64,000 bases of DNA from an uncultured Chloroflexia bacterium (GTDB lineage Bacteria; Chloroflexota; Anaerolineae; Anaerolineales; UBA11858): contig CAWGOD010000001.1 of the NCBI GenBank assembly GCA_963824175.1, positions 56,712-120,711 on the forward strand. Reading direction: 5' to 3'. The notes below the pieces were generated by a model. It saw nothing but the letters and a program-made list of their open reading frames with translations, was not told where the DNA came from and did not search any database. The translations under genes were made by a program, and so were the position numbers. Every line of letters begins with the position of its first letter. Positions within the stretch are counted from its first letter, which is position 1. This document shows, in pieces, positions 6,964 through 56,069 of the stretch.

Positions 6964-6972
6964 AAGCTCTCT

Positions 6973-7324: not shown

Positions 7325-7551
7325 ACAAAAACACCTCCTGTATTTATTATTATACGAGAGGTGTTTTTATTTCGTGTCCTGTTTTTGGGGCTCAGTTCAA
7401 ACCAGCAGGTGTTTTTCTTTATATAAGGATTGAAATTCCAAGAGGGGGCTTCCTGTTTCACTGGAAGTCCGAACGTCGGCCCACGCCGACGTCATTCTTC
7501 AAAGCACGGAAATGGTCTGTATTATCTATCTTTCTGGGACAACAGGTTATT

Positions 7552-16610: not shown

Positions 16611-16801
16611 AGGGAGAATTATAGCTTATCCCTTCCTGATGGCATTTTTATTCATCAAGGAGGATAAGGAAATTATCAGCATGAGAATGACCTAAAAACA
16701 GGCCAAGTGGGGGATTAAGGCCAAAAATGAGCCAATTATCGTTAAAAAATGCCTTTTTAAGTGGGTTATTCCTTGCAAAAAACAGTACTTTCATATATAC
16801 T

Positions 16802-36346: not shown

Positions 36347-36358
36347 TATTTTCTCCTA

Positions 36359-36929
36359 TTAATTCCACAGCCTGCGAACAAAATAGGCCAGAGCGTAGGC
36401 ACCACCGAAGATGGAAAACATTACCACCCAGCTGCCGGCGGAAAGTGTGGCTCCACCGGAAAGAGCTTGTCCGGAGGTGCATCCACGAGCCAGGCGAGCG
36501 CCGTAAGTGAAACAGATCCCGCCCAAGAAAGCGAATAACCAGCGGGTCTGATTGGATATATTGGGACCTTTATGAGTTTCAAATTTGGTCCGACCGTGGA
36601 TCACACCGGAAGTGAATCCGCCGATCAATACACCGGCGGTCACGATCACGATCCAGCTGTCCAGAGGATTCAGTTGACCACCAGCCATATTGATCAGATA
36701 GGGGACCTGGTCGATATGTCCGGGAGCGATTAGATCCTCGATGAAGGCAGCAATGCGGCTGAGTACCGCCGGAAGCACCCAATCCATTACCGGTGATGAA
36801 ATAAGAGGCAAATAGAACCATGCCCAATAAAACACCACCAAGATAAGGATTCGCATAAGGCTTAGAAGGCCTGTTGAACAGATCCTTCAAACGAAATTTC
36901 TGTTTTTCTGGTTTTTGATTTTCTGTCAT
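36359..36929 (-). CDS. YeeE/YedE-family membrane protein (half-size partner); frame break near 36780
   Basis: N-terminus PYLGGVLLGMVLFASYFITGNGLGASGG and C-terminal half ARGCTSGQALSGGATLSAGSW. Confidence 0.7.
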
Positions 36930-37003
36930 TTCTAGTCTCTCTTTTCTAGGCGGAGTTTATAATCTGCCATTTTTTTACTTGGAAAATACAATTCGATTGA
37001 GAT

Positions 37004-37603
37004 TAACTCTCAATGTCCTCCCAACCGGTGATCATAGCTTCAATGCTGGAAACAGCAGTATGACCGGTTGTAGTCAGGTAGATATGCAGGATCAGGAAAG
37101 CTGCAAACAGCCAGGCAATGATGGTATGGAAGGGAGCCAGGATGGGCAATCCTCCCAGGCCTTTCAGCCAGACCAGGCCAGCGCTGTAAACCCCACATCA
37201 GGGCGCCAGTGATGCCCTGAAGAGGTAAGAGCACATTCAGCAGCCCGAAATAGGTGATCTGCTGGAGAGGATTCAACTTCTTGTCAGTTGTTTTTTCAAA
37301 GGGGTGATGTTCACCTTTGAAGATACCCAGCAGGTAGTATTTGATCTGTACAAAAGTGCGGTCAAAGAAACCACGCGGTCGAGGAATATACTGCTGGATC
37401 TCTCCTGTAGCTAGATGGAAGAACAAGGACAGGAAAGCATTGACAGCAAGAATTGCTGCGATGATGTTGTGGACCAGGACCATATTCCTGAAGTTCATAA
37501 AAGCGAACGAGTCGGGCCTGTGGATTATGAATCCGGTCAGCAGCAGGATCACAATCGCCGCTGTTTGCAACCAGTGCCACAATCGCTCATAAGCCCCGTA
37601 CAT
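37004..37603 (-). CDS. Cytochrome b (Ni/Fe-hydrogenase / PhsC-type, PF01292-like) membrane subunit; frame break near 37150
   Basis: YERLWHWLQTAAIVILLLTGFIIH. The C-terminal piece PFHTIIAWLFAAFLILHIYLTTTGH...ITGWEDIES is in another frame, ending at stop 37004-37006. Confidence 0.7.
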
Positions 37604-39740: not shown

Positions 39741-39757
39741 ATCAACTGCATCCTTTA

Positions 39758-41210
39758 TTAGGGTCGATAACTATTGGACTGGAAACGGCCGCCCCAATCG
39801 ATCGGATCACCGTAATATCCCAGTGATTCCCAATCCATCCTGCCTTCAGGACCGTGGCATTGATCACAAGTCAGAGCTTCCGTAGCTGCTCTGACCATGT
39901 GCGTGGTTGGCCAATACATATCCGTTTCAGTGAAATCCATATTGGCCGCTGTAATCCAGGCCGGTGATATCTGCACCGAGCTGAAGGGCTAAATCCCAAT
40001 CGAATTCGGTCCAGAAACCTCCCTCGCCAAAAGTTTTTGGCTGGAGAAGGATATTATTTACAGTGTCATAAGGTTGTTTGGCAGTATGAACTTTGAAGGG
40101 AAAAACTTGGAAGATTGATCATGTGATATCACCTGCTGGCAGGTTTATGTGCACCAGCTGATCCGGATCGATCATATCTCCCAGGATATAACGTTCGGCT
40201 ACGCCGCCGTTGTACCACATGTAAACCGGAGTGAAATTGCCTTCGTATACAAAACTGCCTTTGATCTTCAAATAAGTATGAACGCTTTCCTCAATCTCAT
40301 CGCTGCCCGCTGTTGACCAATCCCAGTACATCTTGGTTGCATCCCTGGTTGCCGCATTTGGAATGTGGCAGGTCTGGCAAGCAACTGACTCAATATGGGC
40401 ATTGATGCGGTCATCCTCGTGCAAGCCTTCGTCATGGCAATCAATGCAGTAGGTCTGGTTTTCATTATCCAGGCTGACGGAGATCGATCGTCCCATAATG
40501 TTGTGGCTTTCTGTCTGGTGGCAATCAGTGCACATAAAGTCATGTTCACCCATATGGATATCCACATTGGAAGGCGGGAAGTAGAGGGTTTCATCCAGAT
40601 CACCATGTTTAACCGCATTACCTCCGCCGCCATTAAAGTGGCAGCTGCCGCAGTTTTCACGGGTTGGAGCGGCGACGCTCTGGGCGACTTCCAGCAGGTC
40701 TACACCTTCAACCGGTATGCCGGCCAGGCCTTTCACGTATGTGCCGGTATTATCATGGCATGCCAGGCAATCGACAAATTCTTCCTGATTGAAGTCAAAA
40801 TTAGCATCTTCCCATCCATAACCTGCATGACAGGAGGTGCAGCTGGGCCAGTTGCCCTGAATTCCGATACAGAAATTGTTAATCGAGTTCTTTTTCCCGA
40901 CTGTGACAGTGTTATCTCTACCTTCTATCTGATAGGGTTTGCTTTCCCAGGTCCAATGTGCTGTTGCCATGATTTCCTGAGCTGAATCTTCGTGGCATTC
41001 CAGGCAGGCCCTGGTGACTTCTTGACCGGTTTCAAAAGGGCCCTCAATGATCGCTGTGTGATCGGTGTGGGGGACTTTTAAAGGCACATTATCCCAGGGA
41101 TCCGAACTGATCGGCTTTTCTCCCCGGGGGAAGAAGATCACGATTGGGATCACAATTATAAAAAGGACAAAAACGGCACCAAATATCCAGTTGAATTTGG
41201 ATGGTTTCAT
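39758..41210 (-). CDS. Tetrathionate-reductase-family octaheme c-type cytochrome (OTR family); two frame breaks (about 40120 and 39960)
   Basis: Eight CxxCH motifs: CLECH, CTSCH, CLACH, CGSCH, CTDCH, CIDCH, CQTCH, CDQCH. Strings such as ATAHWTWES, NNFCIGIQGNWPSCTSCH, NCGSCHFNGGGGNAVKHGD and VHTAKQPYD match my recollection of the OTR family. There is an N-terminal TM anchor. Confidence 0.75.
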
Positions 41211-41213
41211 AGA

Positions 41214-41568
41214 CTACCTCTCATTGGATTGGTTATGTTTAATTAGATCAGCTTGCTGTGATAACTGGTCCAGCATAACCTCGCGGAGTATGTCCAGAGC
41301 TTGAATAAAACGTTTATCAGCCAGAGAATAGATCACCTGGGCCCCATCGCGCTGTGCCTGGATCAATCCCCTCTCGCGGAGGACTTTTAAGTGGCGTGAA
41401 GCCGCAGATTGACTGATACCCACGATCTCTGCCAGATTGTTCACATTTTGGGGTGTTTCAGCGACAGCATATAATTAATAATATCCGATTAGGTTCTGAA
41501 ATTGCGGAGCAGATCCTGGCATGCAGCTGATTGATTTCTTGGGCAAGGGGATTATTGTTCATAGACAT
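41214..41568 (-). CDS. ArsR/SmtB-family transcriptional regulator; frame break near 41450
   Basis: LHARICSAISEPNRILLI followed by NVNNLAEIVGISQSAASRHLKVLRERGLIQAQRDGAQVIYSL. Confidence 0.75.
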
Positions 41569-41791
41569 ATGTACATATAGGAATATATAGGCTTGTGAAG
41601 ATTATAACAACTTGGAAATAAAGAGATAGTGACAAATGTAACATGTCTAGCCCAGGGGGTTGTGACAGTTTGTGTGACATATGTGAAATAAAAAGTCCAG
41701 ATTTCAGTATGGGAGTGGGAAAACGAGGGGAGGATTGTTGGAATAGACGATCGGTTTATTAGTTTTTGCCCATCTTTAAAACAAAGATATC

Positions 41792-42688
41792 TTAACCTTC
41801 GAGGGCGGTGGTTATGAAATCCCAGAAGGCATCTCTTGCTGCAGTGGTCAATTGAGTTTTGTCCCTGGCAATATATAAACCCTGTTTGATATTGATATCT
41901 TTAATTGGAACAGCCACAGTTTCGCTGATCGCGGATGAAATTGTGGTGGAGCTAAAACTAAGACCCAAACCTTTGTTTACAGAGAGGGCAATAGCTTCGG
42001 CATTGTCCAGGGTCAGGAAAGAATCCAGCTGAAGGAGGGACAGGTTTTTGGATGCCAGAGCCTCATTTACTTTCATATAGGTTTTTGTATTCGCTGCGGG
42101 AAGAATAAATTTTTCTCCTAGCAGTTCCTCAACTTCGATGAATTCGCGTTTTGCCCAGGGATGATCTTTGGGTGTGATCAGCATAATTTCATCCGTCAGC
42201 AGATGTTGAGACTTGGAAGCAGGGCTCGACTATATTTTCAAGATTTGTGAATAAGAAGTGAATATCTCCACTACGAAGGGTATTCAAGAGGAAAATTACA
42301 GGTATCAGTCTGGCAGGCGATTGTCACTTCCGGGATACAAATCGTGGAATTGAGAAAAGAATTCCGGTAGTTTATATCTTCCAGTGAGAGCGTTGCATCT
42401 GATGCTTATCCTGCCTTTGATATGCCCCTTTAGGGATGACATGGCTTCATTGATCCTGGTGCTTTGTTTAACGAACTGCTGGGCCATTGGGATCAATACC
42501 CGACCGGCATCCGAAAGGATCAAAGATCTTCCCTGTCTGATAAAAAGCACCTCTTCAAAGTGTTTTTCCAGGGACCGAATATGCTGACTGACACTTGGTT
42601 GACTCATATGCAGCCGTTCAGCAGCCTGGGTGAAATTCAAAGTATCTGCGGCGACCAGAAATATGTTAAGTTGGTGGGCATCTAACAT
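41792..42688 (-). pseudogene. LysR-family transcriptional regulator with at least three frame breaks between 42185 and 42330
   Basis: N-terminal HTH LNIFLVAADTLNFTQAAERLHMSQPSVSQHIRSLEKHF (ORF 42305-42742) and C-terminal effector domain (ORF 41792-42184). The linking segment is readable only by switching frames. Confidence 0.65.
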
Positions 42689-42837
42689 GGGATTCTCTAG
42701 GAGGATACTTGATAATTTATTAGTAATCATTATTATATCCAAAAGAAATTATTATGGGTAATCGATTCTGACCCTCTAATTTCAATTTCTAAAACTAGAA
42801 TAAACAGTCCTGTTTGAAAAATCATCCTTTCTGATAA

Positions 42838-42871
42838 AAATAAACGCTTCAATATATTTTGAAGCGTTTAT
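42838..42871 (-). terminator. Rho-independent terminator after the NrfD gene
   Basis: AATAAACGCTTCAA-AATATA-TTGAAGCGTTTATT followed by TTTTTATC on the minus strand. Confidence 0.7.
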
Positions 42872-42901
42872 TGATTTCCTATGACTCAATGCGAGACCAG
42901 G

Positions 42902-44134
42902 TTAATGTGCTGCCTCTTCGTCTTTGGGGTAGATTGGCAGGTACTTTATGCCAAAACTGAAAGCAAGCAAAGCGTAAGCGATGATACCGATGGAAACTAT
43001 GATCTCATTCCAGGTAGGCAGGTAGGAAACTGTGATCAAATTGCCAAGTACACCCGGGGACCACTGTGGCGGGGCGACCAATCCAGAGAGGGTTACATTC
43101 CAGCGATTTACTGTTACTCCTGCGATGATTGCTCCCAGCGCCAGCATCGTATAGCGATCATTTTTCCTGAAGTTTGCATTTAGCAGGATGATGGCCGGTA
43201 CGAATGCCGCCCAACACGATCTCAATCCACCAGAAGGTTCGGGTATAAGGAGTGGTTGATTGCAGTAATGCCAGAGCCTCGGTTGTACCGGGAGAAGTGC
43301 TGTAATAGGAAGTAGCCGCCCAATCCCAGATCTTTAGATAAAGGTAGGCCAGAAGGGCATATCCAGCGAAGCGGGAGATATCATACTGCAGTTCCCGGCT
43401 GATAATTTGCCGTCTGTTCAGTTTGCCGACGAAAATGGTTAACAACAGGGTCATGGATATCCCTCCGGCAATAGCGGAGAGAATGAACATCACCGGCAGG
43501 GAAGGTTTGTACCAGATAGCTCTTCCTGACAACACGCCGTATGTCGCTCCCAGGGAGGATTGATGGAGCAGGGATAATCCCAATCCGATAGCGGCAAAAA
43601 CAGGTGATGCCTTGTGGATCAGATCACCATACTTACGAAGATTAGGCCAGCGGTCAAAATATTTACCCTCGAGCAGGATCGGTAAGAATTCCAGCACAAG
43701 CACGATGGAATAAAGGATCACACACCAGGTGATTTCCCATAAAACAGAGTGAACATTCCAGTAAACCAGGGGATGCCAGAACCTGTCTGGCCGGCCGATA
43801 TCCATGGCCAGGGCAAGCATGGCGGATGTATACCCAAGGAATCCCACAAAAACAGCGGCACGGGCGATGGGTTGGTATTTTTTGATCCTGAACAGGTAAA
43901 CAATTGCCGAGAATGTGAACGCACCGGCTCCTGTTGCGATAGAACTCAGGTCCTGGGTGATCCACAAGACCCCAGGGGACCTGGTCAGACAAACCAGTCA
44001 CATGCAAACCTTTGACAAAAACCCGGATGGCGCCGAATACTACCAACGGCGAGCATCAAACCAAGAACACCGATCCAGATCCACCAGGCACGCTCTCGGC
44101 CTTCTTTAGGAATGGAAAGATCAAATTTAAACAT
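42902..44134 (-). CDS. NrfD/PsrC-family polytopic membrane quinone-interacting subunit; about three frame breaks
   Basis: MFKFDLSIPKEGRERAWWIWIGVLGLML..., GLSDQVPWGL, and MDIGRPDRFWHPLVYWNVHSVLWEITWCV. The ATG at 44134 directly abuts the upstream stop (TAGATG). Confidence 0.75.
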
Positions 44135-44978
44135 CTATACTTCCTCCTTTTCAGGGCGGACATAATGAACATTGGGTTTTGTCCCAAAATCCTCCCTCAG
44201 GCGGAAGGTTTCATTATCTTTAACAAAAATAGAAACCGGACTTTCTGGATCATTATGATCACCAAAAACACGGGCGTTCACAGGACAGATATTCACACAT
44301 GCTGGTGTGGCTTCCCGGTCAACTCCCGGCGTTAATCCCTGGGCCAGCCCGCGATCGATTCTGTGACTGCAGAAGGTACATTTTTCCACCACGCCCCGGG
44401 ACCGGCGCTCAATTTCCGGCGATCCCCAGGTGGGTTGATAGGGATTTTCTTTTTTGGATAACTTCCCAGTTAAACCGCCTGACATCATAAGGGCAGGCAA
44501 CTTCGCAGTAGCGGCAGCCAATGCAGCGTTTGTAGTCCATGGTGACGATGCCATCTTTGCGCTTCCAGGTCGCACCGACTGGACAGACTTTCACGCAGGG
44601 AGCTTCTTCGCAATGCAGACAAGGGTCTGGTCATAAAAAACTCTGTTCCGCTTTCAGTACGCTCGGGATGTCCCACATTCCAGCGCATGTCATCATCAGG
44701 AACATCATTGGTTGCCTGGCAAGCCCAGAGGCAGTACTGGCAGCCGATGCATTTGCTGAGGTCGATAGCCATACACCAGGAATGTTCGGATTTCCCTTCT
44801 TCGCCATGGGTTTTTTCGCCAATACCTTGGATCGCATCTGGGGACAGGGGTCCCGATGTGATCAGCTGAGTGACCAGCGCTGCTGCACCTGTCGACCCGG
44901 CGATCTGTAAAAATTCCTTTCGTGATACCAGGGATTTCTTATTAGTAGATTTTCCAGAGATCCCTTTTTAGAGATCAT
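44135..44978 (-). CDS. Periplasmic four-cluster [4Fe-4S] protein (PsrB/NrfC/HybA type) with a Tat-like signal; about three frame breaks
   Basis: [17 protein letters not shown]; [11 protein letters not shown]; [14 protein letters not shown]; [12 protein letters not shown]; CTFCSHR...[18 protein letters not shown] precedes the ATG at 44978. Confidence 0.75.
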
Positions 44979-46001
44979 TTTCCTCTTCCTCCTCATCTGT
45001 CCGACTGCGAAGATTCTGGCCCACGAACCAGGCGGTGCTTCCGCCCAGGACTAGGCCGATCACAGCACCCTGGAATAAATTGCTTACCGGCTGCTGGCCA
45101 GGGCAGTCTCCAGGGCCTGGATCTGCTGGTTGGGATATCTGTCGATTGTTTACCGAATGGTTTCTGATCAGCGGCTGGGCGCCTTCGTCCTTTCTTGCCC
45201 TTCATCTGTGTCCTGCGCATGGAATGTTGCATCAGCAGCCCCATTTTCATAACCGGGGAGAGTAAAACCTGCATGTAATGCGTCTGTATGGCAGGCAACA
45301 CAAGTTTGAGGTGAAATCGTGAAACGCATGCCCAGTCGGTACAATGCCATCTTCAGGGCTAACATCAGGTGGAATTACTAGGGCATGGCAATCCACGCAT
45401 CCGATATTTTGCTGAACGTGAAGGTCGTTCAGATAATCGCCCATTCCTTCCCGGTGGCAGTTGATGCATAAATCATCGGGATTATCAAATAAGTGGTTTC
45501 TGGCTGTGGGGATCATGGCAGTCCATGCAGTCTACATCTCCAGAGGCGTGGCCTGTACTGCGCCATTCACTCAAAGTTGTTGTATGGCAGGAACCGCAGT
45601 AATAAGTATCAACGATGGTTGGTACCACCTTGATCGGGGTGATTAGTTGTGACAGTACCGTGACAAGATTGGCAAGAAACACCCTCATGTTTCATATTCT
45701 CCAGTGGATGAAATGTAATTCGTGGTATGGCAGGCCAGGCAGGTATCCGGAGTGCCCAAACCAACCCACTGCTCCTGGAAAACAGGATCATCATAGGCAT
45801 GGGCATGGGGGCTTGGAGACCAAACTCCCTGCCACATCTCCGATGACATTTTACACAATCATTGTCAGTGAGAATTTCTTCAGGGGGATCATCACCTTGA
45901 GAATTGGGTGCTGCCGAGACAATTCCAGTGAACAGGAACATGGCAAGTAATCCAATAATTAGGCCGGATACAAGGGCAGGGGAATACTTTCTTTTAGTCA
46001 T
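44968..46001 (-). CDS. Octaheme c-type cytochrome with signal peptide and C-terminal TM helix; at least six frame breaks
   Basis: CxxCH motifs found by frame-hopping: CVKCH, CLACH, CQSCH, CGSCH, CMDCH, CINCH, CVDCH, CVACH. The tail GAVIGLVLGGSTAWFVG...EEEEENDL has a stop that overlaps the next gene's start by 11 nt. Confidence 0.65.
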
Positions 46002-46266: not shown

Positions 46267-46398
46267 GAATCCCCGTTGTATCTTTTGGGAGCCTTTATAT
46301 TGATTGACATCCTTTATCTCAATGAGCTGGAAGATAGCGGTGGGTTTGGCGGCTGGGTAGATGCAGGTTACCCGGTGGTTGAATACGCTATGCCCTAG
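46267..46398 (+). pseudogene. Remnant of a rhodanese-domain gene (C-terminal approx. 30-40 codons only)
   Basis: The open frame with no start codon reads ...LYLNELEDSGGFGGWVDAGYPVVEYAMP*, which resembles the C-terminal GG..W..AGxP box of rhodaneses. It is followed by its own terminator. Confidence 0.35.
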
Positions 46399-47510: not shown

Positions 47511-47543
47511 AGGGACTGAGTCCTTCAAAAGGACCCAGTCCCT
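47511..47543. repeat. Palindromic element AGGGACTGAGTCCTT-CAAAA-GGACCCAGTCCCT (copy 2 of 2); probable terminator
   Basis: It shares the GGGACTGAGTCC arm and the CCTTAT flank with 35061-35092. It lies between the convergent LysR and DsrE-like genes. Confidence 0.65.
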
Positions 47544-47578: not shown

Positions 47579-47938
47579 TTAGAAACTAAAGGTAATAGTG
47601 GCGTCTTCGATTTCCATCAAGAAGGGTGGGGCTTTGGTGATCTTGATCCTGTCATCGCGCAGATCTTTGGGATCGATACCTTTGTTTTCAAGTGCCAGTT
47701 CGCACAGGATCATTTCAGCGCCAAGATCCATGATCGTATCAAATAACTCAACAGGATTGGGTAGACCCTTGGGGGTGCCCAGTGTTTCCAGCTCGCCTTT
47801 CAACATCCAGCGGGCGCCGGCGGGACAAATAAACACCACAACTTCATTATCAAGTGCCAGGCCTGAAGACGACATGATCAGGGTGGGCATGATGTTGGCA
47901 GGTCCATCGCCATTGCAGGTAATTGCCATTTTAGCCAT
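47579..47938 (-). CDS. DsrE/DsrF-like (COG2210-type) small sulfur-relay protein
   Basis: 119-aa ORF. VVVFICPAGARWMLKG and MILCELALENKGI are paralogous to the ORF at 49343-49717. Confidence 0.65.
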   Translation of the reverse strand: MAKMAITCNGDGPANIMPTLIMSSSGLALDNEVVVFICPAGARWMLKGELETLGTPKGLPNPVELFDTIMDLGAEMILCELALENKGIDPKDLRDDRIKITKAPPFLMEIEDATITFSF

Positions 47939-48007
47939 TTAGTTAGCTCCTTTTGTTATAGTACAAAGAGTCCGGGAATTTTCATCCCGGACTCTATTCA
48001 TTAATTC

Positions 48008-49015
48008 TTAGTTATCTTTTTTCTGGGGCAGAACAAACATCACATAGGATGCCGCCCACGCGCCCAGGAAGATCGATACACCAGCTAAGATGGATCCCAG
48101 GGAAAGCTGGGGAATACCACTCAGCAGATGGCCGATATTGCAGCCACCAGAGGTTACTGCGCCAAATCCCATCAAAAGACCGCCTGCGAAGGTTTGAAGC
48201 AGGACAAGAGGTTTGGGCATACGGAATTTGAATTCCTTGGAGATCAGAGCGGCAACAAAGCCTCCGACAACAATACCGATGATTAGCATTCCGATCCAAT
48301 TAAAGGTTGCACCTGTGAATATAACCTGGACGATGTTGATCCAACCTGCGGTGATGCCAAGTGGATAGTTACGGCCAGCAGCGGCGGACAGCGGGAAGGC
48401 CAGAATGCCAACCAGGCCGACCAAGATACCTGTGTTCAGCCAGCCCCAACCCGGGTCAGCTTCACATTCTTCATTCTTGGATTTGGCAACAAAGTACCAA
48501 ACCACAACAGCGATCAAAGCAAGGATGATCGCCAGGGTGGTGTAGTCCATACCCAGGATTCCATGCAAGGTCAAAGCTTTGTCATCTGCTCCGGAGATTG
48601 TTGTGGCAGCTTGCAGGTTGGCTTTGAAGGGTTTCAGGAACCCAGAAGCGGTGATATAACCAGCTGTGGCCAGGCCGAGAACTGCAGTCATTGAACCAAC
48701 CATACCTTCACCAGTACGGTAAGTGATGCCGCTGGCACATCCGCCAGCCAGAACCATACCGATACCAAATATAAAGCTACCCAGCAGGTTTGCTCCCCAC
48801 CAGAAAGGTTTGGGGTTGATGGCAATGGCGCCAACTGCATCCATAAGCGCAAATCCGACCAATTCAACCAACAGTGCGGCGAATACAGTTTTCAGGAGGA
48901 CGTTGTCCTGCAGCAGGATAGCGTCTCTGAAGGCTGAGTTCATGCAGAAACGTCCCCTCTGCAGAACAAAACCAAACAAAACACCTACAAATAATCCAGT
49001 TAATACAGCTTCCAT
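48008..49015 (-). CDS. yeeE: YeeE/YedE-family thiosulfate-type transporter (full length)
   Basis: 335-aa multi-TM ORF with three Cys contexts: RGRFCMNSAF, AGGCASGITYRTGEG and SGGCNIGHLLSG. Confidence 0.8.
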   Translation of the reverse strand: MEAVLTGLFVGVLFGFVLQRGRFCMNSAFRDAILLQDNVLLKTVFAALLVELVGFALMDAVGAIAINPKPFWWGANLLGSFIFGIGMVLAGGCASGITYRTGEGMVGSMTAVLGLATAGYITASGFLKPFKANLQAATTISGADDKALTLHGILGMDYTTLAIILALIAVVVWYFVAKSKNEECEADPGWGWLNTGILVGLVGILAFPLSAAAGRNYPLGITAGWINIVQVIFTGATFNWIGMLIIGIVVGGFVAALISKEFKFRMPKPLVLLQTFAGGLLMGFGAVTSGGCNIGHLLSGIPQLSLGSILAGVSIFLGAWAASYVMFVLPQKKDN

Positions 49016-49045
49016 CTCTCTCTCCTTGACTAATTTTTATTGATA

Positions 49046-49294
49046 CTATTTCAATCCATGTGCTTCGATCAGCATACGGTGGTTGGGTCCATCCAATTGT
49101 TCAACTTCGATCAGTTTATGGCCTTGTTTTTTGAGGTTGCGCGGAATCCTTTCCACTGAAAGTGGATAATCCAGCAGCACTTCCAGGACTTCACCCTTTT
49201 CCATTTTTTTCAGTGTGGTCATGGTGTTCATGTCAGGGTAAGGGCAGATCTTTCCACAGACATCCAGGGTTTTAGTGGGGGATACTTCGCTCAT
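49046..49294 (-). CDS. TusA/YeeD-family sulfur carrier protein
   Basis: 82-aa ORF with LDVCGKICPYP (the CPxP motif of TusA/SirA-like proteins). It lies immediately upstream of yeeE. Confidence 0.8.
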   Translation of the reverse strand: MSEVSPTKTLDVCGKICPYPDMNTMTTLKKMEKGEVLEVLLDYPLSVERIPRNLKKQGHKLIEVEQLDGPNHRMLIEAHGLK

Positions 49295-49342
49295 TCGACT
49301 AACTCTCCTTTTTTAATGGATGATGAATTTGAATCCCAATCA

Positions 49343-49717
49343 TTAATAACTAAAGGACATTTTGGCGCCTTCCGCTTCAAAGAGGAATGTTGAGGCCATC
49401 ATGACTTCCACACCTTCAACCAGATCTTCCTCTTTCATGTCCCAGATCGGCAAACCGAGTTCACAGAGGATCACCCGACCGTCCAGGACCTGGATGGCAT
49501 CAAAAAGATCTACAGGATCTGGTTGGCCCTTGAGGTTTTGGTACTTTTCCAGGGCGCCTTTCTTGAGGATCTTTGCGCCGCCTGGCTGGATGAATAACAG
49601 TACTTCATCACCTGTGGCAGCTACAGCTGCGCTCATAACCAGAGCAGCCATGACACTTTGTTCGTTATCGTTGTTCAGTACAACTACAATCTTCTCGGTC
49701 TGGAATTCTTCAGTCAT
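49343..49717 (-). CDS. DsrE/DsrF-like (COG2210-type) small sulfur-relay protein
   Basis: 124-aa ORF with VLLFIQPGGAKILKKG and VILCELGLPIWDM. Confidence 0.65.
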   Translation of the reverse strand: MTEEFQTEKIVVVLNNDNEQSVMAALVMSAAVAATGDEVLLFIQPGGAKILKKGALEKYQNLKGQPDPVDLFDAIQVLDGRVILCELGLPIWDMKEEDLVEGVEVMMASTFLFEAEGAKMSFSY

Positions 49718-49775
49718 CTATATATCCTTTTTTGTAATACTATTTCGTAAATGCAGTTCGTGTTATCTCTAATTC

Positions 49776-50951
49776 CTATTGACTTGCAGGAACTAATTCC
49801 TCTTTAGGCCGTTCACTGATCTCAACCGCTTTCAGCCTGACTTGCTGGAAATAGATCGCCAGAGGTCGGTAATATAGGTGGGCCCATTTTCCAAAGGGTA
49901 CTTCCAGAACCAACATTGGGAAGGCTGCGGCCAGGTGGATCACATAGGTATAGTAGGTTGCCAGAGGCAAACCCAGATACCGGAAGGTATGCTGGAAAAT
50001 ACCTGTCAGGGTCACCGTGATCAAAAGAACGGGGAAGATCCAGTCACTGGGGTGGGAGAATTTATGAAGCGGCCTTGACTGTTTAATCCGTCCTATGATC
50101 ACAGATCCCGCACCGTATAGCAAAACAGCGGTAGCATAGTATCCCAACCAGCGTTGAGGATTGGTGATGGGATAAATTTCATCGGTTTGTAACCAGGGAA
50201 GGAAGAACATTACCAGGACCAGCATCAGACCATAACCACTGGCCATCAGCATATGGTTGATCCAGGGCAATCGTTTGTAGTTCTTTTCCTTTTCATCATC
50301 CTCATCCTCGGCACATTCACTCCATCTCATCTGAGTCAGGAGGTGGAGAACTCCATGCCAGGCTTCAGTGATGTAAACTGAGATCGGAACTTTGACAGCT
50401 GTTCCTTTGCTGATGACCATGTGGTGCATGCGCAGGACATTGGTTCCGATAAAGAAAACCAGGCCGGCAGCCATTATCCAGTCCGCAGTGTGCATCAATT
50501 CCACAGGAGCGAAGGTATTCAGCTCAACGGAGCTGGTTACGATCGGTCCATGAAGAATGACAGCCAGAATAACGATAAAGATAGCTGTAATGATCATGGC
50601 ACCGAACTCCCATAGTTTGGAGGTATAAAACTTGCCAGCCAAGCCGGTCCAGTCATATTGCGCGGTTAACCAGCGCCTGACAGCCATCATGGTCTCACCA
50701 GGTTCGGCTTGCTTTGGGCATGTTAGGGAGCAATCTCCGCAGTAGTAGCACAACCATGGGTCAATGCTTTCCTTGAGGTTATCTTTCAATCCCAGCTGAA
50801 CCATGCGGATCATATCCCTTGGGAAGGGATGATCTGTACTTGTCAGGGGGCAGATCGCGGTGCAGTTGCCGCAGTTGAAACATTTTTCGATATCTACGGC
50901 CCCAAATTCCTTGAGGTCATGCATTAAAGTAGGGTCCACTCGTGTGGCCAT
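49776..50951 (-). CDS. QmoC-like membrane protein: N-terminal HdrC-like two-[4Fe-4S] domain fused to an HdrE/NarI-like multi-TM cytochrome b domain
   Basis: CFNCGNCTAICP and CYYCGDCSLTCP are followed by about six hydrophobic segments carrying His residues. The likely start is MATRVDP at 50951, after a GGAGGAG RBS. Confidence 0.7.
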   Translation of the reverse strand: MATRVDPTLMHDLKEFGAVDIEKCFNCGNCTAICPLTSTDHPFPRDMIRMVQLGLKDNLKESIDPWLCYYCGDCSLTCPKQAEPGETMMAVRRWLTAQYDWTGLAGKFYTSKLWEFGAMIITAIFIVILAVILHGPIVTSSVELNTFAPVELMHTADWIMAAGLVFFIGTNVLRMHHMVISKGTAVKVPISVYITEAWHGVLHLLTQMRWSECAEDEDDEKEKNYKRLPWINHMLMASGYGLMLVLVMFFLPWLQTDEIYPITNPQRWLGYYATAVLLYGAGSVIIGRIKQSRPLHKFSHPSDWIFPVLLITVTLTGIFQHTFRYLGLPLATYYTYVIHLAAAFPMLVLEVPFGKWAHLYYRPLAIYFQQVRLKAVEISERPKEELVPASQ

Positions 50952-50955
50952 ATTG

Positions 50956-51249
50956 TTACTCCTCCATCCGCCTGTAAAGGACATATTCGCCATCCATACC
51001 GTCTTCCCGCACCAGGTCGTATTTCTTTAAAGCTGTCAGGAACCATAAAACACGATGGGTTGGCAGTTCGATCTGGGAGGCAATTGTGGGCACAGTCATC
51101 GATTCATCCTTGATCAGTTTCAAGATCCCTCGCTCGACTTTGCCCTGCTCCTTTAATAGTGCCTGGGTCCGATCTACAGTTTCTTGGTGTTTAGTGCGCA
51201 ACTCCTTGAGGTTCTGAGTTCGCTTTTTTGCTGCTTCTTTATCGCTCAT
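50956..51249 (-). CDS. Small (97 aa) coiled-coil plus winged-helix-like protein, translationally coupled inside the operon
   Basis: Its ATG overlaps the upstream stop (ATGA at 51246-51249), and its stop is 4 nt before the QmoC-like start. The segment MTVPTIASQIELPTHRVLWFLTALKKYDLV looks like an HTH/wHTH. Confidence 0.6.
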   Translation of the reverse strand: MSDKEAAKKRTQNLKELRTKHQETVDRTQALLKEQGKVERGILKLIKDESMTVPTIASQIELPTHRVLWFLTALKKYDLVREDGMDGEYVLYRRMEE

Positions 51250-53284
51250 TGTGCAACCTCCATCATTTCATCGATATCAAGAGCAATTGCATCAAGCATG
51301 GCATCGTACTGTGGGATGGTCCAACCCTGGACCTCTACGGCCTGGTTGGGGCAGGCGCTAACGCAGCAGCCGCAGCCAGTGCAGTTTGCAGGAGAGACAA
51401 CTGCTCGTTTCACCATCTTTCCATTCAGTTCAACATCTTTGACCGCGATGGCATCTTCATAATTACAGACAGTGACACATTCACCTGTGCCTGTGCATTT
51501 TTCGAGGGTCGACCTCGGCCACAAAAGGTTCCAGTTCTACCTTGCCCAGACTGAGCAGGGTAGATACTTTTGCTGCAGCTGCAGAGGCCGCCGCGCAGCT
51601 TTCCTGACACGTCATCGGTCCCTGGGCGGTACCTGCCAGGATCACCCCTGGTACAGCGGTTTCAACAGGTCGGAGTTTGGGGTGGACCTCTGCCAGGAAG
51701 CGGTCATTCCCGCGGGAGATTTTGAGCATTTTCACCAGGTCATCAATATCCCGGGGTTTAATGCCAACTGCCAGTACGACCAGGTCTACTGCAATTTCCA
51801 GTTCTTCTCCCCGGGTGAGATGATCACGCATCTCAACCAGGACGGGGTGAGTATCGCCCGCTTCAGCTTTCTTAACGGTCGGTCGGTCATCACCATGGAA
51901 CCGCAGGAAACGGACCATCTGCTCAAGGGCGTCAATATAATATTGCTCGTGGCCGCGTCCATAGGTTCGGATATCTTCGTACAGGTCGTAGATATTCAGT
52001 CCCGGGAAACGTTCTTTGAGTGTATTAGCCATGTGGAGATTTGCTGTGCAGCAAACCCGGGAACAGTAATCGTTCACATTCCCGTCTTCCTGGGGTTCAT
52101 GGACACCATCTATCTCACGGCTTCCAACACAATGCACCATGGCGATATCACGGACAGGGTGGCCATTCCAAGATAATTTTTCGCCATCTTTCATCAGACT
52201 TAGATAGCGGATCAGGGCCGGCAGGGTGACAACTTCTGGGATTTCACCAAAACCAAATTCTCCCTGACGTGGTTGGTAAGGATCGAATCCTGTTGCAACA
52301 ACAATCGCGCCAGCATGGAGGGGGATGGAGACGGGTTCATTCTTTAGAACAATATCTTTGCCATCCACCTGGATCGGAGAGCCATCATAGTTTTCCCAAT
52401 CAACTGCGGGAGTGTGCGGATAGCAGCCGGGATAGGCTTTGTAAACCACTTTTCGGTCAGTTAAACCATAGTTGAATTCGTCTGGGACTGTTTGCTTGCA
52501 GGCCGCCATGACTTTTTCACCATTGGTATCATCCACACCGCGCGATTCCTGCTGGATCTGTACCTGGTAGTCGCCTACGTATCCAGTTACATTCTTGATC
52601 TGGGCCTGCGTATAGATCACGATATTGGGATGGGTGGTTACTTTATTGATCAGGTCATGAAGGGTATCTTTAGCATCTTCATTGGTTGGGAAAAGGGTAT
52701 CTAACTGGGCAATCCTGCCACCCAGGAAGGGAGATTTTTCTACCAACGTAACTCGGAGTCCCCGGCGGGCGATATCATAGGCAGATTTCAGTCCAGCAAT
52801 ACCTCCACCGATGACCAAGGCATGCTTTTCAGCGGTTAACTGGATCGGGGCCAGGGGATCAAGCAACCTGGCTTTAGCTAAACCGGCTGACATCAAGCGA
52901 ATTGCTTTGGAGGTTGCGCCTTCACAGTCACTTCTATGCACCCAGCTGTCCTGTTCTCGAATACCAACATGGTGGTACAGATAAGGGTTCAATCCTGCTC
53001 TGGTAACAGCTGCCCGGAAGGTCTGTTCATGAAGAGATGGGGCACAAGCGCCAATCACAACTCGATTAACGCCTTTTTCCTTGATATCCTCTTCGATCAT
53101 TGACTGTCCCAGCGTCGGAGCACATGGCCATATTGGTTCGTGAGACAACTACATTGGGGAGATCAGCTAATTTCTCTCTGACAAATTCACAATTAACAAC
53201 ATCACTGATATTTCCCCCGCAATAGCAGGTGTATACGCCAATCTTGATCTCTTCATTTTCTTTGTTAGGCATAGACATCCTCAC
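51246..53284 (-). CDS. HdrA-family flavoprotein (QmoB-like position): N-terminal Cys domain, FAD domain, C-terminal two-[4Fe-4S] ferredoxin domain; two frame breaks (about 53130 and 51500)
   Basis: IGVYTCYCGGNISDVV..MCSD..GACAPSLHE; VIGGGIAGLKSAYD; VHCVGSRE...YCSRVCC; C-terminal CTGTGECVTVC and CTGCGCCVSACP. Confidence 0.75.
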
Positions 53285-54590
53285 TTTCTTTATTCACACT
53301 CGGGGATTCTTTTAGGGATTCAATATAAGCAGCCGCTTCCGCTGCTGCAGAACCGGACATGACGATGCTGTCTACAATATCCATCGGTCCAGCTGATGTG
53401 CCGGCCGACGAATATTCCATCCCTTTCAGTCAGGCAGGGATATGAGTTGGTTTGGGGAATATTGATGAATCCATCGTCCCCCAGGGAAACATTGAACATC
53501 GCTTCCGGATCGTATTGAGGAAGCAAACCCACTGAAAGGACAGCAAGATCGTGAGTATTCTCAACTACTTGGGATCCTTCATCTATCAATTCCACACGCA
53601 GAACAGGGTTCTGGTTTTCATCCTGTTTGATGGAAGCAACTTTGCCTTTGATGAATTGAATGCCCATGGCTTTGGCGGTTTGGATAGAATTGTTCGTATC
53701 CTTTGCCAAAGGTTCGGATATCCATGTAATAGATAGTGATATCCGCCATGGGGAGAGATCCAGCCAGCAGCATAGCCTGTTTGATGGCATACATGCAGCA
53801 AACCCGGGAGCAGTACTCCACACCCAAGGTGGCGTCTCTAGATCCGGCGCACTGGATATAGGCGATCGAATCTGGTTCTTTTCCGTCGCCGGGGCGGATC
53901 ACACGGCCGTAAGGACCGGTGGGAGCCAGAAGGCGTTCCATGAACATGGCATTGATGACATTACGATTTTCTGCTGCGCCATACTCTTTTTTGGCCAGGC
54001 GTGAAGTAGTTTCAAATCCTGTGGCCAGGACGATAGCGTTAGCTGCAATTTCGATCGTCTCGGGCTGCTGAGTGAAATCAATACAATTCACAGGACAGGC
54101 TTTTTCACATTTGCCACATAGGATGCAGTTCTCAATATCCAGGACTGCATATTGAGGGATGGCAGTGGAAAATGGCACCCGGACGGCTTTGGTTGCGCCG
54201 TAATCTAGGTCAAAGGGATTCGGTAAATTGATCGGGCAGGCATATTCACACTGCCTGCAGCCTGTACAATCCTCTTCGTTGATATAGCGGGGTTTTTTCA
54301 ATACTTCAGCTGTGTAAACCTTCCCCGGTTTTCGTGAGGTTCTGAACCTCATGATAAGTAAGTAATTGGATATTGGCATGATGGGCTACGGCAGACATCT
54401 TAGGTGTTGTGATGCAGCTGCAGCAATCCAGAGTTGGGAAAACTTTACTGAGGGCAATCATCTTGCCGCCAATACTGGCTTCCTTTTCCACCAATGCGAC
54501 CTGGTATCCCTGATCTGCAAGATCAAGGGCAGTTTGCATACCGGCAATGCCGCCGCCAACAACAAGAGCATCCACTTGAATTTTTCTCAA
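53265..54590 (-). CDS. HdrA-family flavoprotein (QmoA-like position) with an inserted two-[4Fe-4S] ferredoxin domain; three frame breaks
   Basis: VVGGGIAGMQTALDLA; FPTLDCCSCI; CTGCRQCEYACP; CILCGKCEKACP; IQCAGSRD..YCSRVCCMYA. The tail AGTSAGPMDIVDSIVMSGSAAAEAAAYI lies in a fourth frame. Confidence 0.75.
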
Positions 54591-54656
54591 GGTTGTATCT
54601 CCTCTTTTGTGTGCGACTGTGTCAGAAAAAATCTTATAATCATGGATAAGGGACCT

Positions 54657-55110
54657 TCAGGCAGCAACCTTTTCACCACTAGAAAAAGCTGCCATTTCGT
54701 CTTTAACGAACCCGATTTCATATAGAAGTAGGTTCATCGCATTGACTTCCTTCAGGAAGGGTTTGGTGCAGACTGTACAAATTGCGGCCAATTTTAAGCG
54801 GCGGGTGTCTATTCCGAGTTCTTTCATCTTCGGGTAGGTTTTGTTGACCAACTGAGCTGCTCGTTCAGCGCCACCTTTATAGGGACTGTCTGTGCCGCTG
54901 TACATAACGATCACGCCGTCAATACCTCGTTTGAAGATCCTGAGGTAAAACTCCTCGTTAAACATGCTGGGGCATAGCACTGGCAGGATATAGGTGTTGT
55001 TGGGATAGTCTGTATGTAACTGTCCCACCGCATCTGCTCCCGCATATCCTCCCGAGGTGGTTGCAAGGATGAGAATTTTTGGTGTGTTGCAATCTGACCT
55101 GATTTTCCAT
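54657..55110 (-). CDS. MvhD-like (methyl-viologen-reducing hydrogenase delta subunit family) protein with most canonical Cys positions substituted; frame break near 55075
   Basis: KILILATTSGGYAGADAVGQLHTDYPNNTYILPVLCPSMFNEEFYLRIFKRGIDGVIVMYSGTDSPYKGG aligns by eye to the MvhD pattern (CCNWC.YAGAD...YP.NV.I..V.CSG.....F..GADGV.V.GC..GDCHY). Confidence 0.55.
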
Positions 55111-55185
55111 AATAATTTCCTCTATGCAGGCATAGAAGTATCCCGCAAAATGACAATAACTGCGGGATACTTGGAATGGTACGTT

Positions 55186-55438
55186 TTATTTCTTGCGGCG
55201 AATAAAAGTCTTTCGTATCCGTCGGCTTGTATTCGCCCAGATACTCGTGTCCAACCTTGGCACACCAGCGGGGCATATCATTTTTGGTATTGGGATCACC
55301 GGCCCAAAGTTCGAGTATTTCGTCAATTTTTACTTTTCCGATGCTTTTTTTGGCTTCCAGCAATGGTCCGGGGCAGGCCATTGCCCGGGCATCAACTACT
55401 TCTGCAGCGACAATTTTTTCTAGTTCTTCTGGGGACAT
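55186..55438 (-). CDS. TusA-family sulfurtransferase; probable 1-nt frame break near 55205
   Basis: DARAMACPGPLLEAKKSIGKVKIDEILELWAGDPNTKNDMPRWCAKVGHEYL. With a single-base correction the C-terminus reads ...DFYIRRKK*. Confidence 0.75.
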
Positions 55439-55473
55439 TTCTTTCTCCTTATCGATTGATAATAAATATTTAA

Positions 55474-55759
55474 TTAACTGTTCTTTGAGATGATTGGACA
55501 GATCTGATTGAATTTTGTATCTGCAAGCCTGTAGTAAATTTCCCTTCCATCTCTACGAGAATGCAAAACACCTTTGTTTTTCATCAGCCGTAAATGCTGT
55601 GATGTGTTCTGCATTGATGCATCAATCTCCTCAGAGATCTCGCTTACAGTTAATTCCCGGTTTCCTAAGAGCCCAAACGATCATGATCCTGTGGGCGTTT
55701 CCCAATATGGCGCAAAATTCTGCCTGTTCCTGAGCTTCAGTGATCTCAATTGGGTTCAT
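55474..55759 (-). CDS. ArsR/SmtB-family regulator with two Cys placed as in persulfide-sensing members (SqrR/BigR/sHdrR type); frame break near 55672
   Basis: MNPIEITEAQEQAEFCAILGNAHRIMIVWAL / GNRELTVSEISEEIDASMQNTSQHLRLMKNKGVLHSRRDGREIYYRLADTKFNQICPIISKNS. Confidence 0.7.
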
Positions 55760-56069
55760 AAGAAACTCTCAATCAATTAAACGATTACTTAACTACATGA
55801 CTATTGAGAGTATAGGATTGAGGTAGGATTTGAATAAGTGCAATTAATCACAAGCCCTATCAACCTTATGAATAAGAGGTCATAGATGAAATTTATAGCG
55901 GTTTTTTTGATGAATTTTCCGCTGCCAAGTATGTCTTTACGGATGTTTTGGACAACTCTGTGTAATTAGTGTTTTTAAAGGCTTGAAGCAGTTCAAAATA
56001 AAATAAAGATTTCTGGTAATTTGGAATACACCTTGTTAGAATACAGGTAATCAGTCTTAGGAGAGGTTT

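Follow-up and report, generated by a model that had tools for sequence, protein, structure and literature searches.

What is the substrate of a membrane-bound flavoprotein complex whose genes lie among those of sulfur-carrier proteins? This question is raised by a set of minus-strand genes at positions 47579–55759 of a 64-kb stretch of DNA (hereafter the window) from a frameshift-rich assembly of the Anaerolineales (Chloroflexota). By reading the open reading frames (ORFs) and searching the Pfam and NCBIfam profiles, we found 11 genes, in the order given by an earlier reading of the DNA (hereafter the sequence-only reading), each of whose assignments was confirmed by Pfam/NCBIfam matches, with only weak sequence matches for a 97-residue protein. 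The best explanation of these genes is that they form one operon, whose products are a membrane-bound redox complex built on HdrA, a member of the "type II Qmo" family, and the supply line that brings it sulfur. The features are given below from 5΄ to 3΄; indel-corrected sequences were used in the protein analyses.

55474–55759, minus strand: ArsR/SmtB-family regulator (ArsR), 94 residues, with Cys16 and Cys87; one frameshift near 55663
55186–55438, minus strand: TusA1, 84 residues, with the active-site Cys in ACPGP; Pfam TusA, 68 bits; 1-nt deletions at 55232 and 55207
54657–55110, minus strand: MvhD-like subunit, ~150 residues; Pfam FlpD, 67 bits; one frameshift near 55101
53265–54590, minus strand: HdrA1 ("QmoA" in type II), ~441 residues; three frameshifts, at 54311, 53684 and 53407
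51246–53272, minus strand: HdrA2 ("QmoB" in type II), ~676 residues; two frameshifts, at 53112 and 51504
50956–51249, minus strand: 97-residue winged helix-turn-helix (wHTH) protein, in which a long N-terminal helix precedes a winged-helix domain
49776–50951, minus strand: QmoC-like protein, 391 residues, with an HdrC-like 2x[4Fe-4S] domain and a cytochrome-b-type domain with multiple transmembrane segments
49343–49717, minus strand: DsrEa, 124 residues; Pfam DrsE_2/DsrE; Cys85 invariant
49046–49294, minus strand: TusA2, YeeD/YedF-like, 82 residues, with CGKICPYP; Pfam TusA, 75 bits
48008–49015, minus strand: YeeE/TsuA-type transporter of sulfur compounds, 335 residues, with three conserved Cys; Pfam Sulf_transp, 263 bits
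47579–47938, minus strand: DsrEb, 119 residues; Pfam DrsE_2/DsrE; Cys79 conserved
47511–47543, minus strand: hairpin resembling a terminator, whose 15-bp stem contains 8 G-C pairs and is followed by a T-rich tail

The sequence-only reading knew of no characterised system with this composition. The idea that the module lacks precedent fell, in that it is the catalogued "type II QmoABC" (PMC10504309) and an orthologous, syntenic cluster is found in Vulcanisaeta. Neukirchen et al. 2023, citing Chernyh et al. 2020, set this type apart, for example in Ca. Vulcanisaeta moutnovskia and Ammonifex degensii, and stated that more experiments are required to clarify its role (PMC10504309). Their supplementary table places QmoC, QmoB and QmoA of V. 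moutnovskia at a locus separate from that of Sat-AprAB-DsrKM-DsrAB-DsrC (PMC10504309), and we found this Qmo locus to be L083 of our survey described below. The proteins of L083 are 35–55% identical to those of the window (HdrA1, 55%; TusA, 51%; HdrA2 and QmoC, 44% each; MvhD-like, 35%), its order, DsrE-TusA-MvhD-like-HdrA-HdrA-wHTH-QmoC, is identical, and its MvhD-like protein is identical to V. moutnovskia WP_048057085.1. Common to the two are also flavoproteins nearer to HdrA than to canonical Qmo and a position that is not beside aprAB. They differ in that the window adds ArsR and an import/relay tail (DsrE-TusA2-YeeE-DsrE), and in that the Anaerolineales MvhD-like protein keeps only three Cys. 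Judged by these comparisons, the window cluster belongs to the catalogued, uncharacterised type II Qmo family. The accessible literature on type II names QmoA, B and C only and leaves their function open (PMC10504309). In that literature, from which Chernyh et al. 2020 is excluded, we did not find TusA, DsrE, the MvhD-like protein or the wHTH protein discussed as parts of the module, nor a Cys swap in MvhD. Three results presented here are ones that we could not find reported: the pairing with TusA and DsrE in ~65 loci, the MvhD Cys swap and the hydrogenase-linked sister clusters.

We scanned species-representative genomes with QmoC and obtained 79 loci; four further contexts (L083, L084, L085 and L086) were reached by following the MvhD proteins that carry a CxxC motif outward, and the survey comprised ~85 loci overall, with flanks of at most 10 kb to either side. 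In ~65 loci, from Chloroflexota, Bacteroidota, Elusimicrobiota, Chlorobiota, Acidobacteriota and Vulcanisaeta, the module is paired with TusA and DsrE in the arrangement (ArsR or Crp)-[DsrE]-TusA-MvhD(CxxC)-HdrA1-HdrA2-(wHTH)-QmoC-[DsrE]; about 40 of these belong to Anaerolineales, 13 to Elusimicrobia and 11 to Bacteroidales/Chlorobiota. Thus, the association of a flavoprotein and membrane module with sulfur-carrier proteins, as proposed in the sequence-only reading, is backed by synteny conserved across six phyla. Where a TusA-linked locus extends far enough, the TusA1 gene is almost always the one immediately upstream of the MvhD-like gene, and TusA1 Cys22 is invariant in the 50/50 orthologues, from three phyla, that passed the coverage filter. 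The conserved core is (regulator)-TusA-MvhD-like-HdrA1-HdrA2-(wHTH)-QmoC with one DsrE. The TusA2-YeeE-DsrE tail is accessory: about every second Anaerolineales locus has DsrE-TusA2-YeeE, few loci of other groups have it, and loci without YeeE retain a DsrEb-type copy directly after qmoC. Variants of the TusA-linked arrangement include a Limnocylindrales-like locus (L086; regulator-DsrE-DsrE-TusA-MvhD-HdrA-HdrA-small protein-QmoC), an Acidobacteria-like locus with a single HdrA and a cytochrome b without the Fe-S domain (L085; TusA-MvhD-HdrA-cytochrome b-DsrE) and a locus with TusA-YeeE and three rhodanese genes upstream of the core (L053). Among the conserved neighbours in the survey we found no apr, sat, dsrAB or HdrB-type gene.

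A second arrangement was observed in 13 Bacteroidota loci, in which HdrA-QmoC-HdrA-MvhD-MvhG-MvhA-HycI encode the module with a [NiFe] hydrogenase and without sulfur carriers. Examples are L033 (8178–16349, with HdrA proteins of 600 and 585 residues), L041, L044, L055, L056 and L065. Two hybrids, L042 and L046, carry MvhG-MvhA beside the HdrA genes and QmoC; the wHTH gene was detected in L046 and is not clearly resolved in L042. MvhAG was found only in the hydrogenase-linked and hybrid loci and is absent from the window operon.

Several further genes were noted around the surveyed clusters. In L084 (7395–15139), genes resembling Fe_hyd_SSU, NrfC and NrfD lie directly upstream and the small protein has 96 residues; its MvhD carries CxxC in addition to the canonical Cys, an intermediate form, and this locus is the sole exception to the sulfur-carrier linkage. 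A CGGC-domain protein is encoded between qmoC and a DrsE_2-type dsrE in L074 (11080–11427, Elusimicrobia), and a 471-residue VKOR-family protein just past the LysR gene downstream of the cluster in L019 (13144–14559); each family occurs in 7 loci. VKOR-family proteins are quinone-linked thiol oxidoreductases.

The swap of hydrogenase for sulfur carriers is matched by a swap of cysteines in the MvhD-like subunit. An AlphaFold model of this protein (predicted local distance difference test score, pLDDT, 70, which is moderate) gave MvhD chains as its top four Foldseek matches, including 5odc_D, 8rvu_F and 7bkb_F. Alignment with the PDB chains indicated that the Cys of the canonical [2Fe-2S] cluster, which lie in CCxxC after β-strand 1 and in GC and DC after β-strand 3, are replaced by ATTSG, YS and DS, respectively. 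Gained instead is an invariant C-(S/T)-V-C (C-T-V-C in the window protein) directly after β-strand 4, on the same sheet edge as the canonical cluster loops in the model. This CxxC was present in every TusA-linked MvhD-like protein examined, from three phyla, and absent from hydrogenase-linked MvhD, which keeps all of the canonical Cys. A homologue search of 1.8 billion representatives yielded 251 relatives, many of them fragments; CxxC was found in 14/14 full-length representatives without the canonical CCxxC and in none of the 6/6 with it. Most CxxC members keep two more Cys, one after β-strand 2 and one after β-strand 3, and the Anaerolineales protein has three Cys only. The sequence pattern could therefore mark either a ligand-permuted Fe-S cluster or a redox-active dithiol. 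The idea that CxxC proves a redox-active dithiol was weakened, because the four Cys of most members fit a ligand-permuted cluster.

We next consider the two flavoproteins, for which the HdrA identity claimed in the sequence-only reading was upheld by profile and structure matches. The top NCBIfam models for both were HdrA2 and HdrA, and the HdrA2 model scored 468 bits for HdrA1 and 559 bits for HdrA2. Window HdrA2 aligned over its full length to methanogen HdrA (5ODC_A, E = 6e-138), and HdrA1 aligned to residues 145–564 of the same chain (E = 5e-113). Matches to sHdrA (6TJR_A) were partial and far weaker than those to methanogen HdrA (E = 2e-27 and 2e-36). These HdrA/Qmo relationships were drawn from hidden Markov model and PDB comparisons. 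A survey of Cys conservation across ~80 loci was also made. Both proteins contain the GxGxxG motif that binds flavin adenine dinucleotide (FAD) and a four-Cys cluster motif, whose Cys are invariant in all groups; the spacer in this motif is 12 residues in HdrA1 and 21 in HdrA2, compared with x(6-8) in CxGxRDx(6-8)CSxVCC.

The two proteins differ in what each has lost. HdrA1 has an FAD-binding thioredoxin-reductase domain with DCCSC (the equivalent of Cys197), an intact inserted 2x[4Fe-4S] ferredoxin domain and the cluster motif CxGSRDx12CSRVCC, and is without the N-terminal and C-terminal domains. HdrA2 retains the N-terminal 4-Cys domain and a C-terminal two-cluster ferredoxin domain; its FAD domain is without a Cys197 equivalent (the FPTxDCxxC cysteines are lost), and its inserted ferredoxin domain has lost the cluster-binding Cys. 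The CxGSR...CSRVCC motif is kept in HdrA2. In the structure of Mvh-Hdr, one HdrA protomer provides its Cys197 as a ligand to the N-terminal cluster of its partner protomer (PMC9012536), and Chadwick et al. 2022 interpreted tandem HdrA genes with such complementarity as obligate heterodimers (PMC9012536). Because the losses of domains and Cys are complementary, in agreement with this rule, HdrA1 and HdrA2 most likely form an asymmetric heterodimer with one complete bifurcation unit. In three TusA-linked clusters (L053, 4927–7704; L066, 3613–6414; L086, 8444–11152), HdrA1 is 900–930 residues long and carries an NfnB/GltD-like Fer4_20 and Pyr_redox_2 module for reduced nicotinamide adenine dinucleotide (phosphate), NAD(P)H. 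These variants suggest that NAD(P)H replaces ferredoxin in some lineages.

For the membrane subunit, the QmoC architecture proposed in the sequence-only reading was borne out, with an NCBIfam score below the cutoff: the qmoC model was matched end to end (positions 5–360 of 360) at 202 bits, under its cutoff of 300. Residues 5–88 match the HdrC chains of solved Hdr complexes, and QmoC takes the place that HdrBC has in methanogens. Eight Fe-S Cys, Cys213, His233, His300, His358 and Met175 are conserved in all groups. Cys213 lies in an RWSECAEDE loop of the membrane domain and is invariant in all QmoC-like proteins examined, those linked to hydrogenase included.

The gene between hdrA2 and qmoC encodes the 97-residue protein, whose AlphaFold model (pLDDT 93) matched ArsR/SmtB/MarR winged helices in Foldseek with E of about 1e-3. 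It occupies the same position in Anaerolineales, Elusimicrobia, some Bacteroidales, Vulcanisaeta and the hydrogenase-linked hybrid locus L046. The stop codon of hdrA2 and the start codon of this gene overlap as ATGA at 51246–51249, and a 4-nt gap (50952–50955) separates it from qmoC, reading TAA, then CAAT, then ATG; these two junctions suggest that the gene is translationally coupled to hdrA2 and qmoC. The protein may be an ordinary repressor or a subunit of the complex, and its conserved overlapping position fits a subunit equally well.

The third tight junction, where the hdrA1 stop (53265–53267) overlaps the start region of hdrA2, whose ATG is at 53270–53272, was likewise exactly as described in the sequence-only reading. 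All of the motifs quoted there were located (ACPGP, CGKICPYP, CFNCGNCTAICP, CYYCGDCSLTCP, CTGCRQCEYACP and CILCGKCEKACP), as were both Cys of ArsR and the three Cys contexts of YeeE. Two boundaries were corrected, namely the start of QmoC, to 50951 (391 residues), and ArsR, to 55474–55759. The hairpin at 47511–47543 closes the operon. In the gap that separates the yeeE stop from the start of dsrEb (47950–47990, minus strand), a perfect inverted repeat of 10 bp (GAGTCCGGGA...TCCCGGACTC) precedes TTTGT; it may serve as an attenuator within the operon or as a site of RNA processing. A promoter scan gave nothing above shuffled expectation.

The remaining products are sulfur carriers, an importer and a regulator. 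TusA2 scored 72.8 bits with the NCBIfam YedF model (cutoff 79) and 29.9 bits with YeeD; YeeE scored 329 (Spirochaeta type) and 193 bits with the TsuA models, under their cutoffs of 400 and 645; and DsrEb is 39% identical to DsrEa. Persulfide and thiosulfonate adducts are formed on proteins of the YeeD type, and to decompose thiosulfate YeeD depends on a reductant or acceptor supplied from outside (PMC11073785). The regulator matches Pfam HTH_20/HTH_5, NCBIfam HTH_metalloreg (79 bits) and BigR (56 bits, under its cutoff), and its best PDB match is BigR (3PQJ), with SqrR listed too. The sensors of the BigR/SqrR type are defined by Cys at BigR positions 42 and 108; BigR Cys42 aligns to Trp29 of the window protein, whose own Cys are at 16 and 87, and in the Elusimicrobia orthologues the BigR-equivalent column 29 holds a Cys and another is C-terminal. 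On the basis of these matches, ArsR could plausibly sense sulfane sulfur.

Taken together, we favour a model, to which we give an even chance, in which a flavin-based bifurcating/confurcating complex links carrier-bound sulfane sulfur, menaquinone and ferredoxin; the mutually exclusive linkage to hydrogenase or to sulfur carriers between sister clusters is counted in its support. By analogy with Mvh-Hdr, a high-potential branch would lead from FAD through the cluster of the thioredoxin-reductase domain, the QmoC clusters and the haems b to menaquinone, and a low-potential branch from the N-terminal cluster of HdrA2, completed by a Cys of HdrA1, through the inserted ferredoxin domain of HdrA1 to ferredoxin. 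In the Bacteroidales/Limnocylindrales variants, the NfnB/GltD-like NAD(P)H module would stand in place of that inserted domain. The third (input) port would consist of the C-terminal ferredoxin domain of HdrA2 and the MvhD-like subunit, where the Mvh [NiFe] hydrogenase enters in the sister clusters. As the conserved gene linkage suggests, TusA and DsrE would replace the hydrogenase at this port, and the redox substrate would be carrier-bound sulfane sulfur (R-S-SH + 2e- + 2H+ <-> R-SH + H2S), with the invariant CxxC of the MvhD-like subunit as a candidate thiol/disulfide or cluster site. Sulfur of the thiosulfate or polysulfide type would be brought in and passed on by YeeE, TusA2 and both DsrE proteins, and the two-Cys ArsR would probably derepress the operon when sulfane sulfur appears. 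The complex could work in either direction: sulfide or persulfide would be oxidised and the electrons bifurcated to menaquinone and ferredoxin, or electrons of menaquinol and reduced ferredoxin would be confurcated and sulfane sulfur reduced to H2S. The potential of S0/HS- (about -270 mV) lies midway between those of menaquinone (about -75 mV) and ferredoxin (about -450 mV), and thus both directions are energetically reasonable. A more specific proposal, which we consider rather improbable, is that of a flavin-based bifurcating enzyme of a new kind with a protein-bound persulfide as its third substrate; sulfide, or the sulfane sulfur on TusA/DsrE (about -270 mV), would be oxidised at the CxxC of a repurposed MvhD and the electrons divided between menaquinone and ferredoxin (NAD(P)+ in some lineages), or the enzyme would act in reverse as a confurcating sulfur reductase.

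Several observations weigh against the favoured, sulfur-linked model. The operon contains no recognised catalytic site for S-S reduction and no HdrB/HdrD CCG domain. CxxC and two further Cys in most members of the subfamily fit a plain Fe-S electron wire equally well, and the model of the MvhD-like protein is only moderately confident at the pLDDT of 70. The Thermoanaerobacterales locus L084 has MvhD-like-HdrA-HdrA-small protein-QmoC without TusA or DsrE. The linkage to TusA and DsrE could reflect regulation or the supply of sulfur to another enzyme, and V. moutnovskia, which has the same cluster, is a sulfate reducer with AprAB (PMC10504309).

The last point bears on the possibility that the complex is a genuine Qmo, which would exchange electrons with menaquinol and with an AprAB whose genes lie elsewhere, as is assumed for V. 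moutnovskia, with TusA and DsrE serving a downstream Dsr pathway. The Vulcanisaeta cluster is indeed listed as QmoC/QmoB/QmoA, with Sat-AprAB-DsrKM-DsrAB-DsrC at another locus of the genome; a QmoC-like architecture is common to both; and canonical Qmo is likewise thought to need a third partner and electron confurcation (PMC3333476). However, the flavoproteins are much nearer to methanogen HdrA than would be expected of canonical Qmo, their layout is unlike that of canonical QmoA and QmoB, no apr, sat, dsrAB or HdrB-type gene was found among the conserved neighbours of the ~85 loci, and TusA stands beside the MvhD-like gene nearly everywhere, which is tighter than an unrelated neighbour would be. 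We consequently consider this explanation unlikely. The sequence-only reading had drawn on the absence of AprAB, Sat, Dsr, HdrBC and LbpA; this holds locally, in that none of apr, sat, dsrAB, dsrC, hdrB/C and lbpA was found among the annotated ORFs of the window, but the window cannot exclude a distant catalytic partner. An absence from 64 kb proves little, because the genome of the Vulcanisaeta orthologue encodes Sat-AprAB-Dsr at another locus.

Another explanation would dispense with a sulfur substrate, making the complex a ferredoxin (or NAD(P)H):menaquinone oxidoreductase to which TusA and DsrE are attached as sensors, redox switches or donors of sulfur for cofactors. All of the cofactor modules for transfer from ferredoxin to quinone are present, the four Cys in most of the MvhD-like subfamily fit an ordinary Fe-S relay, and L084 manages without TusA and DsrE. 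Nevertheless, this leaves unexplained the retained third port, which is used for hydrogenase in the sister clusters, as well as the importers and rhodaneses added in several lineages and the BigR/SqrR-like two-Cys regulator, and we judge it improbable.

It is very unlikely that the operon is decaying in this organism, with real frameshifts and a non-functional system. Relative to two relatives of 85% identity, nine single-base indels were found, in ArsR (1), TusA1 (2), the MvhD-like gene (1), HdrA1 (3) and HdrA2 (2). Decay could be read from their being uncompensated and confined to 4.5 kb (ArsR to HdrA2), with none in the next 5 kb, and from a second cluster of frameshifts in genes for a multihaem cytochrome, NrfC and NrfD. 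However, frameshifts occur in the same patchy pattern in essential genes of the dcw cell-division cluster (rsmH, ftsI, mraY, murD, ftsW, murG, murC) and in an ABC permease, premature stops arise only from the frameshifts, protein identity to the relatives is 88–99% outside the indels, and the relatives derive from long-read metagenome series. The closest public relatives, L004 and L005, are metagenome-assembled genomes from long-read soil/sediment data with ~85% DNA identity and colinearity across the whole cluster, and all 11 genes are intact in the relative L001/L004. Because of the shared patchy pattern and this intact relative, the nine indels are best read as assembly errors. Pseudogenisation was thus largely rejected, since the essential dcw genes carry the same single-base indels. 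By region, we counted nine indels in ArsR-HdrA2 (51504–55663), about seven in the multihaem cytochrome, NrfC and NrfD genes and about ten in dcw (17–28.7 kb), and none at 28.9–34.3 kb or in the 5-kb segment that begins with the wHTH gene and reaches LysR1; most are insertions outside long homopolymers.

Cytoplasmic sulfur oxidation of the sHdr kind, in which TusA-bound sulfane sulfur would be converted to sulfite, is extremely unlikely: shdr loci likewise have TusA, DsrE, a YeeE/SoxT-like importer and a two-Cys ArsR-type regulator (PMC11094781, PMC11582611, PMC12423496), but neither CCG-domain HdrB/HdrC nor LbpA was found in the operon, the annotated ORFs of the window or the conserved neighbours, methanogen HdrA is matched far better than sHdrA (6TJR), and the quinone-linked QmoC is not an sHdr component.

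A second sulfur/respiratory block, with many frameshifted genes, adjoins the operon at 35113–46001 of the window. It consists of a rhodanese gene and a split YeeE-like pair (35.1–36.9 kb), a cytochrome b561 gene (37.0–37.7 kb), multihaem cytochromes c (37.6–41.2 kb), ArsR2 and LysR2 (41.2–42.7 kb) and NrfD-NrfC-multihaem cytochrome (42.9–46.0 kb), the last of which is kept in L001, L005, L006 and L032. Only the last 27 codons of another rhodanese gene are detectable at 46315–46395; in L001 and L005 a rhodanese of 179 residues is encoded in the interval from LysR1 to the multihaem cytochrome. The segment from 35.1 to 47.5 kb has two LysR regulators in all, and none of the genes identified in it is Apr, Sat, Dsr, HdrB/C or LbpA. 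A frameshifted gene for an LplA/B-type lipoyl-protein ligase lies beside mraZ on the minus strand (15773–16625), 30 kb from the operon; it is probably a housekeeping gene, because no LbpA-like ORF is among those annotated. ORFs at 6164–7366 on the minus strand resemble an IS3-family transposase by reading (HTH OrfA and integrase-like OrfB in overlapping frames; a candidate). The rest of the window comprises the dcw cell-division cluster and transporters.

HdrA/Qmo-type complexes are central to anaerobic energy conservation, and the partner at their third port is a long-standing open question. In bacteria and archaea alike, the gene neighbour of this port is either the Mvh hydrogenase or TusA with DsrE. 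The value of the present results rests on the cross-domain TusA/DsrE linkage, the swap of hydrogenase and carrier at one port and the matching MvhD Cys swap, and these three taken together make the identity of the third partner directly testable. They provide a concrete, testable candidate partner for an uncharacterised family found in thousands of metagenomic sequences, and one carrier of the cluster, V. moutnovskia, has been grown in the laboratory and can be used for experiments. If the favoured model were true, a quinone- and ferredoxin-coupled step would be added to cytoplasmic sulfur trafficking, and the use of Qmo-like genes as markers of sulfate reduction in metagenomes of Anaerolineales, Bacteroidales, Elusimicrobia and Acidobacteriota would have to be reconsidered. 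Under the more specific proposal of a persulfide-bifurcating enzyme, "type II Qmo" would be a sulfur-carrier oxidoreductase, rather than a partner of adenosine 5΄-phosphosulfate reductase, in archaea that reduce sulfate and in many anaerobic bacteria.

Finally, we compared the window cluster with known systems other than type II Qmo. Canonical QmoABC occurs in sulfate reducers and Chlorobi (Ramos et al. 2012, citing Pires et al. 2003; PMC3333476). It resembles the window system in its two HdrA-related flavoproteins and in its link to quinone, and probably also in QmoC, where an HdrC-like Fe-S domain is joined to a dihaem cytochrome b of the HdrE type. In canonical QmoB, whose function Ramos et al. 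2012 termed "enigmatic", an MvhD-like domain is fused to the protein (PMC3333476), whereas in the window the MvhD-like protein is encoded by a separate gene upstream of hdrA1 and HdrA2 ends in a ferredoxin domain. Moreover, canonical qmoABC clusters with sat-aprBA, and no apr or sat was found among the annotated ORFs of the window or the conserved neighbours of the ~85 loci. An identity with canonical QmoABC was therefore rejected on the grounds of the missing apr linkage, the separate MvhD, the differing domain layouts and the sub-threshold qmoC score.

The carrier and import genes resemble parts of other sulfur systems. Much as in YeeE/YeeD (TsuA/TsuB) and YTD, a YeeE-type protein with three conserved Cys lies beside TusA-family and DsrE-family proteins. 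In the window, however, the scores are under the cutoffs of the models for TsuA/TsuB equivalogs and the set is embedded in a respiratory-type operon. The YTD/DsrEFH type II cluster consists of yedE-tusA-dsrE and two conserved hypothetical (DsrF/H-like) genes, whereas the window order is DsrE-TusA-YeeE-DsrE; its two DsrE proteins are paralogues with a single Cys each, and further hypothetical genes are absent. The sHdr-LbpA system, with its TusA/DsrE3/rhodanese relay and sHdrR/SoxR regulators, is similar in the TusA/DsrE relay, the YeeE/SoxT-type importer, the two-Cys ArsR-type regulator and an HdrA-family flavoprotein. The window differs from it in being without HdrB1/B2, HdrC1/C2 and LbpA, in having HdrA of the methanogen type and in the added quinone link through QmoC; an sHdr identity was rejected for want of HdrB/C and LbpA and with only a weak sHdrA match.

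With the methanogenic MvhADG-HdrABC complex (5ODC), the window system has in common the fold and cofactor motifs of HdrA, a subunit of the MvhD fold and an HdrC-like domain. It differs in that it is without HdrB, and hence without a site for the non-cubane disulfide-reduction cluster, and without a hydrogenase, in that the canonical [2Fe-2S] Cys set is not in its MvhD-like subunit, in that its HdrA is predicted to be a heterodimer rather than a homodimer, and in that the complex is membrane-anchored. The combination of an HdrA pair, QmoC and an MvhD-family subunit is also found in Ca. Methanoglobus (Archaeoglobi) and in the Bacteroidota loci L033, L041 and L055. MvhAGD, two HdrA and QmoC of Ca. 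Methanoglobus were proposed to bifurcate electrons from H2 to menaquinone and ferredoxin (bioRxiv 10.1101/2023.09.08.556235), which is the same three-port logic of donor, menaquinone and ferredoxin as that proposed here. In those clusters, however, the donor is a [NiFe] hydrogenase and the cluster Cys of MvhD are canonical, whereas in the window TusA and DsrE are found instead and the MvhD-like subunit carries CxxC.

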